Source of the DNA: Escherichia phage vB_EcoS_HdK1
Length of the DNA stretch: 64,000 bases
Sequence record: MK373794.1
Reading direction: 5' to 3' (one strand)
Shown here: piece after piece, positions 120 through 32,979 of the stretch
Position numbering within the stretch: position 1 is the first letter of the stretch
Layout: every line of letters starts with the position of its first letter
Program-made: the position numbers and the translations under genes
Notes under the pieces: generated by a model
Databases searched by the model: none
What the model saw: only the letters and a program-made list of their open reading frames with translations
Told to the model about the DNA's origin: nothing

Positions 120-617
120 CGAGGCGCTCACAAGCTCGCGCACGCGCATAATGCGGGCACGCGGTCTAACACAAAAGAAAATTGAATTGCAAGCGATTTT
201 TGCTGAGGTAACTCTCGAAGCGAAAGCGATTTGCGAGTTTGAAATTTTGTAGCCCGAAAACGATTCTATTTTATGGTATAAATGTCGGATTTTTCGGTGA
301 AAGGTGGCTTTTCGGTGAGGTTGGGTGGCTGGGATCGGTGTAACTGGTAGCCCATAAAGCGAAAATAGCCGCGAAAACGGGGCACGCAGCGCGATTAAAT
401 GGTTGGATCAGTGTAAGGGTGGCGGTGAGGGGGCGAAAATGCCGCAAAATCGCTTACAGGGATGCAGGGAGTGGGCCGCTGTAAGGGCGTATAAGGCGAT
501 TAAATTGGAGTCTATGGTAATGTATGGAAGATGGATTTAGGCTCTTAGAGCGCGAATGGTGGAGCTATGGGTGAGGAATATGTGGTCAGCAGGGTAGCGC
601 GGGAGGTTATGCAGGTA

Positions 618-660
618 CAAAAACGAAAGCGCCCCGTTGGACTTCAACAGGGCGCGGATT
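618..660 (-). terminator. Rho-independent terminator ending the leftward early operon
   Basis: GC-rich inverted repeat GCGCCC..GGGCGC directly downstream of the stop of the 679..927 gene; on the minus strand it is followed by a T-rich tract. Confidence 0.55.
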
Positions 661-678
661 GTATAATGCTTTTAGAAG

Positions 679-927
679 TTATTTACTAGTTAATAATACC
701 GCCCAGGTATTATCTGGAAGCGTACCAACTCCGAGTATCTTAAACTGAAGCGACTTGTTCTGCATGTTGTAGTTGTCGAGTAACTCCTGGGCAGCCGCAG
801 CAGCGTTCGCTTCACCGTTCAGGTTGTAGTCGTTTGCAGTTATTGCACACATACCGAGACCGACCGCTTTGAAGCGCATACCTTTGGATTGAGTCGGTGC
901 AAGTGCTTTAACATGGATAGCGTTCAT
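679..927 (-). CDS. Hypothetical early protein, 82 aa (paralog family A)
   Basis: ORF track; shares an AAAA(Q/E)EL..F(K/E)ILG/SGG..P(D)..(W/Y)A pattern with the 1458..1703 product. Confidence 0.5.
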   Translation of the reverse strand: MNAIHVKALAPTQSKGMRFKAVGLGMCAITANDYNLNGEANAAAAAQELLDNYNMQNKSLQFKILGVGTLPDNTWAVLLTSK

Positions 928-24289: not shown

Positions 24290-27200
24290 ATGCCACCAGC
24301 AATAATTGGAGCTGTAGTTGCTATCGGGGCAGCGGCTGGCGCAGCGGCAGGTATTATCACAGCCACTACCGCGCTTGTGATTGGTATTGCTGCCAGTGCT
24401 GCTGGAGCTCTACTTACAAAAACTCAGAGCTATAACTTTGACTCCTATACACCTCAGAGCGAGCGTAAACAGGTTATTCGTGCCGCCGCTGCATCTAGAA
24501 CTGTGATTTATGGGACAACTGTGTCTAGTGGTGTTCTTGTATTTGCAGAAGAAGAACCAGGAGTACAAGATCCAGATAAACACGGTGAGAACTACGAGAA
24601 GTTGACTCTTGTATTGGCGTTAGCCGGACACGAACTGACAGAAGTAGGACAAGTGTGGTTAGGGGACGATCCAATAGGTACTTATGCTGGAAACGCATCC
24701 TATAAGGTATACAACAACCCTACTACGGTCAGTCAAGACATGTTAAATCGTTGCCCATCATGGAAAAGGGACATGATTGGTAAAGGTATCTGCTGGATGC
24801 AATTGAATCTAGTATATGATTCACAGAAGTTTCCAGCTGGGCTTCCTAATGTCAAATGTGTTAAGAAGGGGAGAAAAGTTCTAGACCCTAGAACTGGTCA
24901 GATGGTGTTTAGCAATAATGCCGCCCTTGTGATTTTGGACTATCTTCGAGTGTATCTTAAACGCGGAGACGATTCAATTCTTTGGGACCAGTTCAAAGAG
25001 GCCGCTAACATATGTGATGAAAGAGTTAAGAACGCGGATGACACGTTTGAATCCCGGTATACTATCAACGGGGAATTTGACATGGATGAAGCACCTTCCA
25101 AGATCCTGGAAGACATGCTTGACGCTTGCGGTGGGGAGTTGACTTATATCGGCGGTAAGCATGGTATCCTAGTAGGTGCATATTACGGGCCTCCTGAATT
25201 AACTCTGGATACGAGTTGCATTGCTGGTGACATTAAAATCACACCAGAGACAGCTTTTAAAGATCGAACTAATACAATCACAGGTACTTACATCGATCCT
25301 CTGCAAAACTATCAAGAAGCAGACTTCCCGTCTGTAAGTGTTTCTGAATGGGTACAACAAGACGGTCAAGAGATTACACAAGACGTCGATTATCGTTTTG
25401 TCACAAGCCCATATCAGGCTCAACGTCTAGCTAACTTGACGTTGAAACGCAAACGTATTGGTCGTTCCATCGAGATACCATGTAACATGCGTGGGTATCG
25501 TTTCCGTCCAGGTATGTATGTCTACGTTGACATTCCTAATATTGGAATGAACAAAGTAGAGATGCGTGTTATTAAGTGGCAGTTTGATCCGAAAGGTGGT
25601 GTCACTGTAACTGTACGTCAAGACTTCCCGGACTTATGGGACGATGCAATTGGCAAACCTGTAGAGCGACCAGATCTAGTGGATTTGCCTACTGGTGGCG
25701 CTATGCAACCTCAGAACCTACAATATGAAGTCTTACAAATTAGCGACGTTGTACAGGGTGTTCTGTCGTGGCAAAATATAATGGCTGTAGCCTACAACAA
25801 CGTAGTAATTAAGAAAGATGGTACTACCGTATTGACGGTGCAAGTACCGGGCCAGAGCACGCGGATTACGGGGCTTATTCGCGGCGCTTATACAGCACAT
25901 GTGAAAGCTGTGGCGTATACCGGCGCAACAAGTCCAGAAGCGTATCTTGAATTCAATATTCAAGCACCTTCCGCTCCTACGTCTGTTGAAGTGACGCAAG
26001 GCTACTTCGCAGTAACATTGAAACCAAAATCTGCAGATCTAGCTAACGTTAGTACACAATATGATTTCTGGACGTCCGGTGAAACAAGATTACCATCCGC
26101 CGCTGTAGACGTTGTAGAACGACAGGCCACCCGTGCTGGTATGGGCACAACGTGGACTTCAGAGGGGTTGCTTAATGACCACACTTATTACTGGTACGTG
26201 CGGGCAATTAATGCTTTTGGTTCTTCTTCATTTGTAGAGGTGGCTGCAAGATGCTTCACAGATGCTGCTGGCCTTATTCCGCAAATTGACACAGAGTTCA
26301 AAGGTACTAACACCTATAAAGAACTTATGGCTGAGATTGGAAGCGTCAGCGATGGTGTCAAGAGTTATGTGGACGACCAAATTGAAACCTCTGAAGGGCG
26401 CTTAACTCAAACAATAGATACAGTGCAACAATCTGTAGTTCTTGTTGACGGTAAAGTGCAGCAACAAGGCGTCACAATCAATGAACAGGGGCAGTTAATA
26501 GATGCTCAAGGTAAGTTAATTGAGACAAACGGCCAACAGATTAATGTGGTCAAAGCTACCGTACAGGAAGTCAGTAAGTCCGTTGTGGATCTTGAAGGTA
26601 ACGTCAACGCTCAGTGGGGTGCCAAGATCCAGGTGGATAGTAAAGGTCAAAAATACGTTGCCGGTATTCAGTTAGGTATGGAAGGTTCCGGTGGAGCTAT
26701 CCAATCTTACTTTATGGTCAACGCCAACAACTTTGCTATCTATAACCCAACTAACAGCACAGCGGATTTAGCATTTGCAGTTAAAAACGGTCAAGTGTTC
26801 ATGAAGGCAGCGTTCATTGAGAACGGTTCTATTGATAATGCTAAGATCGGTAACTATATTCAATCTAACAACTATGTAGCTGGTTCTGCAGGCTGGAAGT
26901 TGAATAAAGCTGGGGATGCTGAACTGAATAATGTTGTCGTGAGGGGTACGGTATATGCCACAAACGGTAGATTCACAGGCGAGATACAAGCAACTAGTGG
27001 GACATTTAAAGGTACAGTTGAAGCAAGTAGATTTATCGGGGATGTAGTCGCAATCTATACTTTCCCAGATATATTAAGTATAGGTACGGATATTTCCGGT
27101 GAGCAATATAAAGTATACACTTATAATGACTCGTCATCCTCCCCACAAGCAAGATCTGTTGTATTTGATTGTATAGTGAGAACTACAAATACTACAAATG

Positions 27201-27418
27201 GATATAAATTAAAACTAACATTAGCAGGTCAATATAGGGAATATGTATTCTATCAAACTAATACTATGATTCCTATAAAATTCGGAGTAAGTGGAGTTAC
27301 AACACGTAGTATACAACTGATTCTGGATACAGATAGGGGTAGTGGTACACATATAGATATAATAGCACCGACATTAACAATAGGGAGAGCTAGTGGTACT
27401 TTCACTGTAAGTGGATAA
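24290..27418 (+). CDS. Tail tip / central fibre protein (lambda J-like) with hydrophobic N-terminal segment and FN3-like repeats
   Basis: 1042 aa; hydrophobic Gly/Ala-rich N-terminus; FN3-like segment (..YYWYVRAINAFGSS..); synteny. Confidence 0.75.
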   Translation: MPPAIIGAVVAIGAAAGAAAGIITATTALVIGIAASAAGALLTKTQSYNFDSYTPQSERKQVIRAAAASRTVIYGTTVSSGVLVFAEEEPGVQDPDKHGENYEKLTLVLALAGHELTEVGQVWLGDDPIGTYAGNASYKVYNNPTTVSQDMLNRCPSWKRDMIGKGICWMQLNLVYDSQKFPAGLPNVKCVKKGRKVLDPRTGQMVFSNNAALVILDYLRVYLKRGDDSILWDQFKEAANICDERVKNADDTFESRYTINGEFDMDEAPSKILEDMLDACGGELTYIGGKHGILVGAYYGPPELTLDTSCIAGDIKITPETAFKDRTNTITGTYIDPLQNYQEADFPSVSVSEWVQQDGQEITQDVDYRFVTSPYQAQRLANLTLKRKRIGRSIEIPCNMRGYRFRPGMYVYVDIPNIGMNKVEMRVIKWQFDPKGGVTVTVRQDFPDLWDDAIGKPVERPDLVDLPTGGAMQPQNLQYEVLQISDVVQGVLSWQNIMAVAYNNVVIKKDGTTVLTVQVPGQSTRITGLIRGAYTAHVKAVAYTGATSPEAYLEFNIQAPSAPTSVEVTQGYFAVTLKPKSADLANVSTQYDFWTSGETRLPSAAVDVVERQATRAGMGTTWTSEGLLNDHTYYWYVRAINAFGSSSFVEVAARCFTDAAGLIPQIDTEFKGTNTYKELMAEIGSVSDGVKSYVDDQIETSEGRLTQTIDTVQQSVVLVDGKVQQQGVTINEQGQLIDAQGKLIETNGQQINVVKATVQEVSKSVVDLEGNVNAQWGAKIQVDSKGQKYVAGIQLGMEGSGGAIQSYFMVNANNFAIYNPTNSTADLAFAVKNGQVFMKAAFIENGSIDNAKIGNYIQSNNYVAGSAGWKLNKAGDAELNNVVVRGTVYATNGRFTGEIQATSGTFKGTVEASRFIGDVVAIYTFPDILSIGTDISGEQYKVYTYNDSSSSPQARSVVFDCIVRTTNTTNGYKLKLTLAGQYREYVFYQTNTMIPIKFGVSGVTTRSIQLILDTDRGSGTHIDIIAPTLTIGRASGTFTVSG

Positions 27419-27423
27419 AAAAT

Positions 27424-27447
27424 AGGCGCTCTATCGAGCGCCTATAA
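27424..27447. terminator. Bidirectional terminator between the convergent J-like gene and the minus-strand secreted-protein gene
   Basis: Perfect 8-bp inverted repeat AGGCGCTC..GAGCGCCT with A/T-rich flanks on both sides. Confidence 0.6.
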
Positions 27448-27448
27448 T

Positions 27449-27739
27449 TTATTTACAACCTTCAGACCAACCAATACGGTTCATAGCCGGTGAGCAATCA
27501 GGTTTGACTTTTTTACCTTTCATCCACTCAGCTTTAGCTTTACCAGCGGTAGTACCTTCGTAGATGGAAGTCTGGTGCTCAATGTTACTTACTCCACCAG
27601 TATGCCCGCCTAATGATGAACCACTACCAGGACCACCAGCTCCACCATTACCTGGACCACCAGTACCACCGGAAGGACCAGTCGCGTAAGCAAAAGTAGC
27701 AGTCATAGAAAGGATAATGGCGCAGATTAAAGTCTTCAT
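27449..27739 (-). CDS. Secreted Gly-rich small protein with signal peptide; opposite-strand insert in the tail module (candidate superinfection-exclusion or moron protein)
   Basis: N-terminus MKTLICAIILSMTATFAYA with AYA cleavage context; Gly-rich segment; two C-terminal Cys; AAGGAG ribosome-binding site. Confidence 0.5.
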   Translation of the reverse strand: MKTLICAIILSMTATFAYATGPSGGTGGPGNGGAGGPGSGSSLGGHTGGVSNIEHQTSIYEGTTAGKAKAEWMKGKKVKPDCSPAMNRIGWSEGCK

Positions 27740-27767
27740 TTCGAACTCCTTTATGTTTGTGTGTAAC

Positions 27768-27796
27768 AACTATATAGGGATATAATTTAAGATGTA
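27768..27796 (-). promoter_or_regulatory. Sigma70-like promoter for the secreted-protein gene (minus strand: -35 TTACAT, 17 bp, -10 TATAGT)
   Basis: Hexamers and spacing read from the reverse complement. Confidence 0.4.
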
Positions 27797-27825
27797 AACC
27801 CCGATCTTATATAAGGGCACAACTC

Positions 27826-30800
27826 ATGGCAATTCGTTTACAAGGTATTTTAGTTGATGGATTGAATAAACCAATCGTCAACGCAAACGTGTTCTTACTT
27901 GCACGAAGCAATACTATTGTAGTTCTAGGTGGAAGTAAAGCGGTATTTAAGACTGATTCGCAAGGTGCTTACGACGTCACAGTGAACACCGGCCACTATG
28001 TGGTTATCATTGGGCCAGAAGGTAAGGAACCGTATAAAGCGGGTGACATTGTAATCTATGCGGATAGCCAGAACGGTTCACTTAACGCATATCTTACTAA
28101 ATGGGCTCCAGAAGAAACCACACCTGAAATACTTCAGGGAAATAAAGCAACTGGTGTCTAACTCTGAGCAATTTGCATTGCAGGCGTCTGAATCCGCTGC
28201 TAATGCTAAGAAGAGTGAGCTTAACGCAGAGACAAGTAAAAACTCTGCTGCAACGGATGCAGCGTCAGCTCTGCTGTCAAAACAGGAATCTGCTGCTAGT
28301 GCGTCTTCCGCATTGCAATCCAAGAACGCTGCGGCTGGTTCTGCTACATCAGCTCAACAAGCTCTTACTGCTGTGCAAGGACTCAAGGCTGAAGTCCAGC
28401 AATTAAAAACCGACACGCAGCATATTAAAGAAGAGGGTGTCGCTGAAGTAACAGCTCTCAAGAATGCTGCAACTACTTCGGCCAACAATGCTAAAGCATC
28501 AGAAACTGCATCTGCTAATAATGCGACTTTGGCTGATACTAAAGCAAAGGAAGCGTCTGTAAGTGCAACCACCGCTAATCAAGCGAAAGTAGCTGCTGAG
28601 GCAGCAAAGGCCGCATCCGAAGCAAGTGCAGTTGAGTCCGCTACTTCTGCCGGTAAATCGCAGACCGCAGCTAATGCAGCTAAGGCAAGTGAGACGGTTG
28701 CAACACAGAAGGCAGCTTCGGCGTCTACGTCTGAAACTAATGCGGCAGCTTCCGCTCAGACTGCGACTAACAAAGCTGGTGAGTCCGCCGCTAGTGCTAC
28801 CGCAGCTAAGGCAAGCGAAACTAATGCTAAAACTTCAGAAACTAATGCTGGTACATCAGCTGGAAGATCTGAGTCTGCTGCTTTACGCTCAGAAGCTGCT
28901 GCCCAACGTGCGGAAGACATTGCTGATGCAATTGGTCTTGAAGATGCAACTTTAACTGTTAAAGGTATCGTTCGTCTTAGCAATGATACTAACAGCACTG
29001 CTGAAAACCTGGCAGCTACGCCAAAGGCTGTTAAAACAGTCATGGACGTTGCTAATACTAAAGCTCCGTCAAATAGTCCTGTTCTAACTGGCGTACCAAC
29101 GGCACCAACTCCAGCACCTGAAGTTAATAACAATCAGATTGCCACAACTCAGTTTGTACACCAAATTATAAGCGCACTGATTGGTGATGCACCAGACGCG
29201 TTAAACACTCTGAAAGAGTTAGCTGACGCTCTTGGTGATGATCCGAATTTTGCAACGACGATAACCACACTTATTAACAGTAAGTTGGCTAAAGATCAAA
29301 ATGGTGCTGACATTCCTAATAAGCAACTGTTCATTGATAACGTTGGTCTACGTGAGACTGTCAACTTAGCTCTCGGTGCATTGAAGAAGAACCAAAACGG
29401 TGCAGATATACCGGATAAAGGTGTCTTCCTTAATAACATCAATGCTGCCAGCAAGACGGATATGGCCGCCAAGAAAGGTATGAGATATACTGTGGTCAAT
29501 GCCCCAGCGGGAGTTGAAGCAGGTAAGTTTTATCCTGTTGCGATTCGTCGTTCTTCTGGATTCAGCAGTGAATTAGCATCCAGGGTGACAATAAGTACAG
29601 GTTCAAGAACGGGAAACCATAGGTTGAACAACTGCGAGTTCAATGGTTTTGTTATGACTGGTGGTTGGACTGACAGGGGACGTTATGCTTATGGAATGTT
29701 CCACGCATATACTGCAAATGAACGTGCTATTCATTCCATTCTGATGAGTAATAAAGATGATGATCTGTGCTCTGTGTTCTATGTCGAAGGTGAAGCGTTC
29801 CCTATCTCTGTATATGTAGAAGAAGGTTTATCTGTTGTTGCACCATCTGCCGACTATGTTGTCGGACAAACGACTTACAAATGGGGTGCTACAGACCCTG
29901 GAACAGAATGCGTGGCCGCTGAAACTGTACTTAATTTCTCCAATGGTAGAGGATTCTATAGTTCGCACGCACTCCTCACAAATGCGGATATTAGTGGCAA
30001 TAAAATTTACGCCAACGGTGAAATCGTAGCTCGCGGTGAGAATCAAGTTCGCATGATTGGTGGGGACTACGGTGCGTTATGGCGTAACGACGGTGCCAAG
30101 ACCTATCTCTTATTTACCGCTAAAGGCGATCAATACGGTGGTTGGAACGATTTAAGACCATTTATGATTGATAACGCTACTGGTGAGTTTACCATCGGTA
30201 CTAAATTGAACGCCGGTCAAGGTGTGAATGGTAACGCATCCAGTGCTACTAAGTTACAAACAGCGCGTAAAATTGGTGGCGCCTCATTTGATGGTACTGC
30301 TGACGTCAATCTTCCAGGCGTTAACATTCAGGGTAATCAGAACACAACTGGTAATGCGGCAACTGCCACCAAACTACAGACAGCACGTAGGATTGCCAAT
30401 GTGCCTTTTGATGGTAGTGGCGATATATCGATTCCAGCTAGAAACGTGAATGCGTTTGCGTTAGGTTTGACTCAAATAGTACAAGATCCAGAAGATGGAA
30501 ATCTATCTAATGGTGTACCTTGGAATGCTATAACCGGTGTTTACAGACAACAAGGTATAGGAGCCTCTAATATTGTTGCTCATTTTTGTGATGGTGGTGG
30601 TTCAACACCTTCTTTGCAGATAAGAGCTATGTATAGGAATGGTGGTCTTTGGTATCGTACATCACGTGATGGTTATGGTTTTGAAGAAAACTGGGATCAA
30701 ATTTACACTAAAAAGAACCCGCCTCCGGCTGGCGAAACCTTACCTGTAGGTGTTCCATTACCGTGGCCCACGGATACACCTCCGTCCGGTTATATTGTAA

Positions 30801-31492
30801 TGCAGGGTCAACCCTTCGATAAAGCTGCATACCCGAAACTTGCTGCTGCATACCCGTCGGGTGTACTTCCAGACATGCGTGGTCAAACTATCAAAGGTAA
30901 ACCAGCAAGCGGTCGTGACGTACTTTCTACAGAAGCTGATGGTGTGAAATCACATACTCACACTGCGTCTACTGCATCTGTCGATCTTGGAAGCAAGACA
31001 ACTTCTAGCTTTGATTATGGTACTAAAGGGACAAGTAGTTTCGACTACGGTACTAAGACGAGTAATAATACTGGTGCGCATACACATGGTATTAGCGGAA
31101 CAGCAAATAGTGCAGGTGGGCACCAACACCATAGTTCTGGACCATATGCGAATTCTAGTGATAGTGATCTCTTTCCTAACGGTTATACCCAGGTTTCAGT
31201 CACAAACAAACCAGTTGTACCACGGCAAGGTGGCGCAGGTATGACCCGTGTATCAGGGAAGACATCATCAGATGGAGCACATACCCACTCGTTATCCGGT
31301 AGTGCCGCAAGCGCAGGTGCTCACGCACACACTGTTGGTATTGGTGCTCACACACACTCAGTCGGTATTGGTGCTCATAGTCATACAGTCGCTTTAGGTT
31401 CACACAGCCACGGTGTTACAGTTAACGCAACTGGTAACACGGAAAACACCGTTAAGAACGTTGCATTCAACTATATTGTGAGGGCTGCTTAA
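27826..31492 (+). CDS. Side tail fibre protein, with an apparent frameshift near 28150..28160
   Basis: Track ORFs 27826..28161 and 28058..31492 are contiguous in different frames; Ala/Ser-rich N-terminal region; C-terminus with repeated His-x-His segments ([16 protein letters not shown]..). Confidence 0.75.
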
Positions 31493-32265: not shown

Positions 32266-32979
32266 ATGTCTGACATGACTCTTATTCCGGGCGGTTTGGG
32301 TGGCGGTTTCGGTGGTGAAGCTGGCGCAGCGGCCGTTGGCGGTGGTATCGGTGGCTTAATCGGTTCGTGGATCGGAAATGGTTGGGGTGGCAATGTCGGT
32401 TGGGGTGGTCGCGGCGGTTGGGGTGGTGGTGTCGGTGAAGTCCAGGCTTCCGTAGATACTAACGCAATTCTGCAAGCCATCAATAACGGCAACCTGCAAA
32501 ACATCCAGGGCCAGAACGGTACTAACCTGACTGTCGAACGTTCTGCGGCGTCCACCTTCAACGGTATTACTCAACAGAACACTCAGAACATGCTGGCTTC
32601 CGTTCAGGGCTTTGCTGGTCTGAACACTGAAATTCGCACTGGTACAGCGTCTGTCGTAGCTGCTGTCAATGCTGCGGATGTAAACGCGTTGAACCGTTCC
32701 TTCCAAGCTCAGTTAGCTGCTCAGGAATGTTGCTGCGAGACCAACCTGAACATCGAACGTCAAGCGAACGAAACCCGTGGCCTGATCCGCGATCAGTTTG
32801 CTCAGTCTCAGGCTGTTCTGATCTGTGATCTGAAATCTCAGTTGCAGGAAGCTCGCTTTGCGAACTCCCAGCTTCATCAGACCGCTCAGATCGATTGTAA
32901 GATCAATCAGGTTGCACAGCTCGTTAACTTCAAACTGCCAACTCCTCCGACTCCGCCGACTGGTTGTTGTGGTTGCTAA
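32266..32979 (+). CDS. Gly-rich, Gln/Asn-rich protein with C-terminal Cys cluster (..PTGCCGC); unknown function
   Basis: 237 aa; N-terminal 60 aa dominated by GG/GW repeats; ECCCE and CCGC motifs; own upstream region and terminators on both sides. Confidence 0.5.
   Translation: MSDMTLIPGGLGGGFGGEAGAAAVGGGIGGLIGSWIGNGWGGNVGWGGRGGWGGGVGEVQASVDTNAILQAINNGNLQNIQGQNGTNLTVERSAASTFNGITQQNTQNMLASVQGFAGLNTEIRTGTASVVAAVNAADVNALNRSFQAQLAAQECCCETNLNIERQANETRGLIRDQFAQSQAVLICDLKSQLQEARFANSQLHQTAQIDCKINQVAQLVNFKLPTPPTPPTGCCGC

Follow-up and report, generated by a model that had tools for sequence, protein, structure and literature searches.

A predicted periplasmic protein encoded beside the receptor-binding domain of Escherichia phage vB_EcoS_HdK1, a candidate exclusion factor in a slot of lipoproteins

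Background

Cor, known from phages T1, phi80, N15 and mEp167, is a small exported lipoprotein of about 75 aa that inactivates FhuA, and its gene is convergently placed where the tail and receptor-binding genes end. T4 and P1 encode exclusion proteins that are soluble in the periplasm after cleavage of a signal peptide (Spackle, Sp, and Sim, respectively); these act after adsorption, on tail lysozyme or DNA entry, and are encoded outside the receptor-binding locus. Among plasmids, TraT of F-like plasmids, a large outer-membrane lipoprotein, hinders the use of outer-membrane proteins by mating adhesins and phages.

The locus considered here, which follows the J gene, was described by Maffei et al. 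(2021, PMC8594841) as determining receptor specificity and as coding for the matching exclusion proteins, a description repeated elsewhere (PMC11990801). Lipoproteins of the Lpp010 type (phrog_12984) are found there in phages mEp010 (gp116), 9g (gp69) and KurtStettler (bas22_0021); expression of mEp010 gp116 (Lpp010) excludes LamB-dependent phages, including lambda (PMC11893012), and KurtStettler is LamB-dependent (PMC8594841). The lipoprotein Llp of T5, also small and encoded beside the receptor-binding gene, acts on FhuA from the periplasmic side, as van den Berg et al. (2022) describe from structural work.

HdK1, JenK1 and HdSG1 carry at this locus an allele that matches no known receptor, and are the Nonagvirus phages that lack a receptor prediction in an otherwise complete scheme for small coliphages (PMC8594841). 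The only other gene in the receptor locus of HdK1 is a small gene on the opposite strand, and it is the subject of the present analysis. The window analysed is the whole stretch of 64,000 nucleotides of Escherichia phage vB_EcoS_HdK1 (sequence record MK373794.1), and all positions without further indication refer to it. Already known were the allele, flagged without receptor match, and the protein family, which existed as an unnamed PHROG. What is new, as read from sequence comparison, is the definition of the family, its predicted soluble non-lipoprotein character in a slot otherwise held by lipoproteins, its pairing with several types of J domain, its apparent exchange between prophages and Nonagvirus phages, and its presence beside an adhesin gene on IncX plasmids.

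The gene and its expression signals

The small gene lies on the minus strand (27449..27739, including the stop codon) and, according to the ORF listing, runs from an ATG at 27737-27739 to a TAA at 27449-27451, encoding a precursor of 96 aa. An in-frame TTG upstream of the ATG would give a product of 106 aa; it is the ATG that has the spacing expected from the ribosome-binding site AGGAG, read from the sequence at 27746..27750 (minus strand), 6 nt before the start codon. Pairwise dN/dS values, computed on the last 32 codons of phage, prophage and plasmid copies, are between 0.03 and 0.2, with dS reaching saturation, which shows that this ORF is a real gene under selection. The 96-aa minus-strand ORF of the original prediction, which had been made from the letters of the sequence alone, is thereby confirmed.

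Upstream of the gene, a scan detected a sigma-70-like promoter, TTTACA-18-TATAGT (27769..27798, minus strand), with 10 of 12 matches to the consensus. Promoter hexamers had indeed been predicted here, but as TTACAT-17-TATAGT, which is off by one base. Promoter-like sites as such are not in excess around the ORF (3 found, against 3.9 expected in shuffled sequences). An element identical to that of HdK1 is present about 30 nt upstream of the ATG in a copy from an E. coli prophage (L017), and TTGACA-17-TATGGT occupies the equivalent position in a diverged allele (L008).

Between J and the small gene, a GC-rich hairpin with a 10-bp stem (27422..27445) scores as a terminator on both strands in the scan, in agreement with the bidirectional terminator that had been proposed for the two convergent genes. 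Hairpins of other sequence are found at this position in L008, L013 and L017, and a terminator is annotated at the equivalent position in the records of HdSG1 and mEp010. A promoter of its own, kept in the prophage copy, and a terminator of its own would fit a moron expressed from the prophage.

Predicted export and organisation of the precursor

A rule-based script predicts a Sec-type signal peptide in residues 1-19 (MKTLICAIILSMTATFAYA; 27683..27739, minus strand), with an N-terminal Lys, a 10-residue hydrophobic core (mean Kyte-Doolittle value 2.58), an A-x-A motif before the predicted cut between AYA and T, and no lipobox. A cysteine within this segment, Cys6, is not conserved among family members. 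At least four unrelated signal peptides occur in the family, and in the 22 members inspected all of them end in a small-x-small motif just before a polar linker, as is expected of a cleaved Sec signal. The lipobox motif [LVI][ASTVI][GAS]C is absent from every family member, both by script and by inspection. From these features the small protein is predicted to be exported by Sec and to be a soluble periplasmic protein, not a lipoprotein.

The signal peptide is followed by a Gly-rich linker (residues 20-48; 27596..27682, minus strand), which contains a 24-nt tandem repeat in 2.1 copies (27620-27670, Tandem Repeats Finder). Precursors of relatives measure 72 to 101 aa and differ in the length of this linker, and in the versions of 75-80 aa it is replaced by a stretch of NS.NSQ type, so that the Gly-rich segment can be considered as a dispensable spacer.

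The remainder, residues 49-96 (GVSNIEHQTSIYEGTTAGKAKAEWMKGKKVKPDCSPAMNRIGWSEGCK; 27452..27595, minus strand), is the conserved mature core of 48 aa defined by the alignments. Its pattern reads GVSNIE.QT.IYE.T..GK..AEW.KG[KR], followed by a Cys loop, C..P[AS][ML].R.G....C, whose two cysteines are Cys82 and Cys95 in HdK1. Cys95 is invariant; Cys82 is lost only in a member of 72 aa (P0037), which has a Tyr there. The two residues probably close a C-terminal loop by a disulfide. In the AlphaFold2 model of the mature domain (mean pLDDT 68), two short helices are accompanied by a beta-hairpin that extends from Cys82 to Cys95; the model of the full precursor is poor (pLDDT 52). The Sec signal peptide, the Gly-rich linker and the C-terminal region with two cysteines had all been part of the original prediction, and each of them was recovered.

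Family definition and homology searches

The HdK1 product is identical to family member P0001, recorded as a hypothetical protein of this phage, and matches PHROG 2243, a family whose function is not annotated, over residues 1-96 (E 5.5e-30); homologues from Klebsiella and Enterobacter match PHROG 2243 too. Among 1.84 billion representative proteins, a profile search retrieved only nine clusters, 1 of which is spurious, and the phages, prophages and plasmids that carry family members are all enterobacterial. Pfam and PADLOC gave no match to the small protein and NCBIfam gave sub-threshold matches only, while a PDB profile search returned no significant match, and a Foldseek search of the mature-domain model against PDB and BFVD returned nothing except another family member.

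One copy, 85% identical, was found in a Firmicute assembly (L036, Sulfoacidibacillus thermotolerans Y002 contig63, 2.6 kb) during a scan of one genome per species. It is probably a contamination.

Position beside J

The convergent partner of the small gene is the J-like tail-tip gene (24290..27418, plus strand; Pfam Phage_Tail_Tip, Ig_J_second and Phage-tail_3). Its last ~125 codons (about 27041-27415, plus strand) are taken as the variable receptor-binding domain from a drop in identity: compared with 9g and PD328, J is more than 90% identical and falls to 5-23% over the last ~125 residues. The neighbour at the opposite end, transcribed divergently, is a side (lateral) tail-fibre gene (27826..31492, plus strand; Pfam phage_tail_N, Gp34_trimer and Collar); the flanking genes also include one for tail-fibre assembly. 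The whole region is 97-99% identical to that of the Nonagvirus phages JenK1 and HdSG1.

When the locus was compared across related genomes, the convergent ORF, located 25-41 nt away, was found to be J-like in 21 of the 23 phage or prophage loci; in the other two, from Klebsiella siphophages of about 48 kb, the small gene is convergent with a tail-fibre gene. The J-convergent loci include the Nonagvirus phages HdK1, JenK1, HdSG1, ESCO3 and PD328 with their metagenomic relatives, T1-like Drexlerviridae contigs (L011-L013) and lambdoid E. coli prophages (L014-L017), and the same position is kept even by copies with no more than 29-52% identity, in further siphophages both temperate and virulent. 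In the lambdoid prophages, the small gene has J on one side and an invertible tail-fibre segment on the other.

Three of these prophages (L014-L016), which combine a J domain of PD328 type with the small gene, adjoin tonB-yciABC, and the flanks of L017 differ. In L014-L017 the invertible segment, which includes a recombinase as well as tail-fibre assembly genes in opposed orientation, is located between the small gene and the chromosome.

Alternative alleles of the slot

Relatives of each of these phage groups carry another gene at the same place. In T1-like phages, L011-L013 have the small gene where phage damhaus has Cor. Within Nonagvirus/Seuratvirus, 9g and KurtStettler (Bas22) have a 77-aa lipoprotein (phrog_12984) in the slot, and the lambdoid prophages are divided between the small gene (L014-L017) and the phrog_12984 lipoprotein (MS 115-1 prophage). 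The slot lipoprotein is 67% identical to that of mEp010, mEp013, mEp044 and mEp554, and gp116 of mEp010 is convergent with J and has a terminator in common with it, which is the arrangement of HdK1. The location between the tail-tip and tail-fibre genes given in the original prediction thus stands, but the insertion that it described is not a one-off: the gene occupies a conserved slot with alternative alleles in relatives.

The coordinates of the slot lipoprotein are 3686-3919 in L003, 1899-2132 in L024, 4097-4330 in L018 and 2273-2521 in L030. In HK97, which has a J domain of LamB type, the slot is without gene. A third family of small secreted non-lipoproteins with two cysteines, also convergent with J, was seen in the Salmonella Tlsvirus GS166 (L034, 1966-2235, minus strand) and in Enterobacter phage BHUENT9 (L035, about 518-780, minus strand); it is unannotated, has no PHROG match and occurs in only 4 phage records (GS166, GS71, BHUENT9 and BHUENT2). 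As a route to the receptor this family was discarded, no receptor being established for its four phages.

Comparison with described exclusion proteins

Cor and the small protein are both small and exported, and their genes are convergent with J and take the same slot in T1-like contigs; Cor is a lipoprotein with the lipobox LIAAVTMTGC, whereas the HdK1 protein has no lipobox. Homology between the two was rejected, as hhalign of the family alignment against the Cor of damhaus aligns the signal peptide only.

The Lpp010-type lipoproteins resemble the small protein further, in slot, orientation and J terminator, in a mature part of about 60 aa with two cysteines, the last of them near the C-terminus, and in being associated with more than one type of J domain. 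They differ from it by their LTAC lipobox. The similarity in sequence is marginal: hhalign of the full alignments gave a probability of 19% (E 0.0012), and with the mature parts the score was 14.1 against a shuffle null of 9.0 +/- 2.2, a score that 10-12 of 300 column shuffles reach.

With T5 Llp, the small protein has in common its size, its location beside the receptor-binding gene and the mechanism proposed for it below, a receptor inactivated from the periplasmic side; Llp is a lipoprotein, whereas the small protein lacks a lipid anchor and has no PDB profile or fold match. Spackle and Sim are soluble and periplasmic, as the small protein is predicted to be, but differ in their step of action and genomic location, and no similarity to solved structures was found. 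TraT, a plasmid envelope protein, can be compared in concept with the IncX copies described below, but is unrelated to the small protein in sequence and in genomic context.

Pairing with J receptor-binding domains

The mature core is 72-96% identical across phages of otherwise unrelated genome organisation and plasmids, and the cores of the E. coli subfamily are 83-96% identical. This subfamily is associated with at least four types of J domain (HdK1-type, PD328/prophage-type, L008-type and L011-type), which are mutually only 22-45% identical, and the J domains that adjoin PHROG 2243 genes do not cluster together. For reference, the domains of the LamB group (9g, KurtStettler, mEp010 and HK97) are 66-95% identical. 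A nearly unchanged protein next to divergent J domains means that the pairing is looser than would be expected for a receptor-specific factor: either one receptor is recognised by all these divergent domains, or the specificity of the factor is not tied to a single type of domain. Such looseness is not unique to the PHROG 2243 family, since Lpp010-type proteins also pair with domains that are about 35% identical.

Such low identity was observed where the phrog_12984 lipoprotein adjoins the J domains of the MS 115-1 prophage and of Enterobacter phage AS5. Deduction of the receptor from the J domain was also attempted and abandoned: the nearest relatives of the HdK1 and PD328 domains are of LamB type but only 28-35% identical, which is too distant for a receptor to be assigned.

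The module of PD328 is 87-91% identical to that of the prophages. At this level of identity, the comparison points to an exchange of the module between temperate prophages and virulent Nonagvirus phages.

Copies on IncX plasmids

A search with the C-terminal part of the gene found 54 plasmid sites among complete E. coli genomes (84-88% nucleotide identity) and 63 plasmids in PLSDB, of which 56 are conjugative. Carriers include pEC4115, the NC101 plasmid and pCROD2 of Citrobacter rodentium (IncX4), and another has an IncX1 replicon; phage genes are absent from the IncX carriers. The plasmid member has 75 aa, and its signal peptide is ~60% and its core ~80% identical to those of HdK1. Its gene is located after taxB and trbM and 29 nt downstream of a gene for a YadA-like trimeric autotransporter, with a ribosome-binding site and no room for a promoter.

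The adhesin locus is found at 4207-6086 in L020 (pEC4115), 4415-6086 in L021 (NC101) and 2500-4171 in L022 (pCROD2). In the adhesin, a very small head with a Cys loop is combined with a long stalk of repeats and a YadA anchor. In P0055 and P0057, from E. coli and Salmonella records, in-frame deletions have fused part of the adhesin, either signal peptide and head or part of the stalk, to the C-terminal half of the small protein.

A literature search on the IncX YadA-like adhesin or its partner small protein found nothing relevant. In phages and plasmids alike, the small gene therefore adjoins a gene for a protein that contacts the surface of another cell. This adjacency fits exclusion or self-masking, and an envelope-accessory role fits it too. 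According to this second explanation, the protein would be a helper or modulator of the display of a surface protein or of an outer-membrane protein, carried by phages as a moron, and the promoterless plasmid gene 29 nt after the adhesin would be co-expressed with it. A precedent is provided by SadB and TpgA, dedicated partners of certain trimeric autotransporters. A search of phages with the IncX adhesin returned partial matches (at most 61% coverage, below 60% identity), none of them in the coliphages that bear the family, and yet the gene is under purifying selection next to J in these phages. J itself is assembled in the cytoplasm, so that a periplasmic protein cannot act as its chaperone, and the alternative alleles of the slot are exclusion factors. 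As an adhesin helper, the protein would thus fit the plasmids but not the phages, and we consider an accessory role unlikely, even if it is the most serious of the alternatives.

Proposed function

The original prediction pointed to superinfection exclusion by a block of the receptor, as a common role of small exported proteins encoded near receptor-binding genes in siphoviruses. This proposal draws strong support from the slot, which is that of Cor and of the Lpp010-type proteins, and it has to accommodate the lack of a lipobox, the association with at least four types of J domain and the occurrence on IncX plasmids. Positional equivalence in three independent phage lineages makes an exclusion factor the best-supported reading, and since the core is conserved across unlike phages and plasmids, a target in the host envelope is more likely than a part of the phage. 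We therefore lean, with moderate confidence, and from sequence and from analogy with known systems, towards the small protein being an exclusion factor that acts on a host envelope target.

Such a factor would be made as a small periplasmic protein from its own promoter of host type, exported by Sec and cut after AYA. The mature protein would then bind a component of the host envelope from the periplasmic side; for a soluble periplasmic protein, a plausible route is the binding of a periplasmic face or domain of an outer-membrane receptor, and the likeliest target would be the outer-membrane protein used by the J receptor-binding domain. With its receptor bound and unusable, related phages could not infect the cell, and progeny would not be lost on debris. 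The role would parallel that of Cor and Llp on FhuA and that of Lpp010-type proteins for LamB-dependent phages, without a lipid anchor.

Several points count against exclusion. The small protein shows no homology to any characterised exclusion protein, beyond the marginal similarity to the Lpp010 type. All characterised factors of the slot are outer-membrane lipoproteins; the IncX copies are located beside an adhesin gene and not beside a phage gene; and the structural model is of moderate confidence only, with fold searches that came back empty.

Instead of the receptor, the protein might be directed at a later step, binding the tail tip, the tape-measure protein or the ejection step after adsorption so as to block DNA entry in the periplasm. 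A soluble periplasmic protein would be well suited to this, as are T4 Spackle, P1 Sim and the bacterial HXS effector (PMC13128918), and an association with several types of J domain would be natural if the identity of the receptor were irrelevant. However, nearly the same mature protein is found in Nonagvirus, T1-like and lambdoid phages that differ in their other tail genes, and on IncX plasmids, which makes a common target on the phage side unlikely. The small gene also strictly adjoins the variable 3' end of J and is exchanged along with it, which points instead to a receptor-recognition module, and a block of DNA entry appears to us more doubtful than the accessory role considered above.

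A secreted toxin or bacteriocin-like peptide of the class II microcin type, or a part of a lysis system, can practically be dismissed: the likeness to microcin V, in which a C-terminal Cys loop also comes after a Gly-rich region, is superficial, hhalign gives a probability of 0.1% against microcin V (MccV), the signal peptide is of Sec type and not a double-glycine leader, the Gly-rich part is dispensable in relatives, there are no immunity, export or other partner genes nearby, and the lack of a lipobox rules out an o-spanin.

If the preferred reading of an exclusion factor acting on the host envelope is correct, the small protein would be, as far as was searched, the first factor of this slot without a lipid anchor, which would imply that a soluble periplasmic protein can do the work of exclusion. 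The mature protein could in that case serve as bait for the receptor of HdK1-type phages.

IncX1 and IncX4 plasmids include major carriers of mcr-1, and the adjacency to the adhesin gene suggests that parts for envelope recognition or exclusion are exchanged between phages and plasmids, with possible consequences for the susceptibility to phages and for the spread of plasmids. A bolder and rather improbable extension is that the family would serve as a self-exclusion factor for siphophages, through the receptor bound by J, and also for IncX1 and IncX4 plasmids, through the receptor bound by the adhesin. Superinfection exclusion in phages and surface exclusion in plasmids would then be linked through one host target, carriage of an IncX plasmid would be predicted to give protection from HdK1-type phages, whose receptor the protein could help to find.

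Other features of the neighbourhood

One inserted nucleotide breaks the side tail-fibre gene of HdK1 into two ORFs, an N-terminal one of 111 aa (27826-28161) and one of 1144 aa in another frame (28058-31492), as established by alignment with HdSG1 and 9g. The change is located near 28136-28139, where an extra G gives CAGGG in place of the CAGG of HdSG1. The extra base may be an error of sequencing, or else the lateral fibre may really have been lost, as it was in laboratory lambda.

An ORF of 237 aa (32266-32979, plus strand), located after the gene for tail-fibre assembly, matches phrog_9288 (E 2e-130), a family whose function is not annotated; its product is very rich in Gly at the N-terminus, and its last four residues are CCGC.
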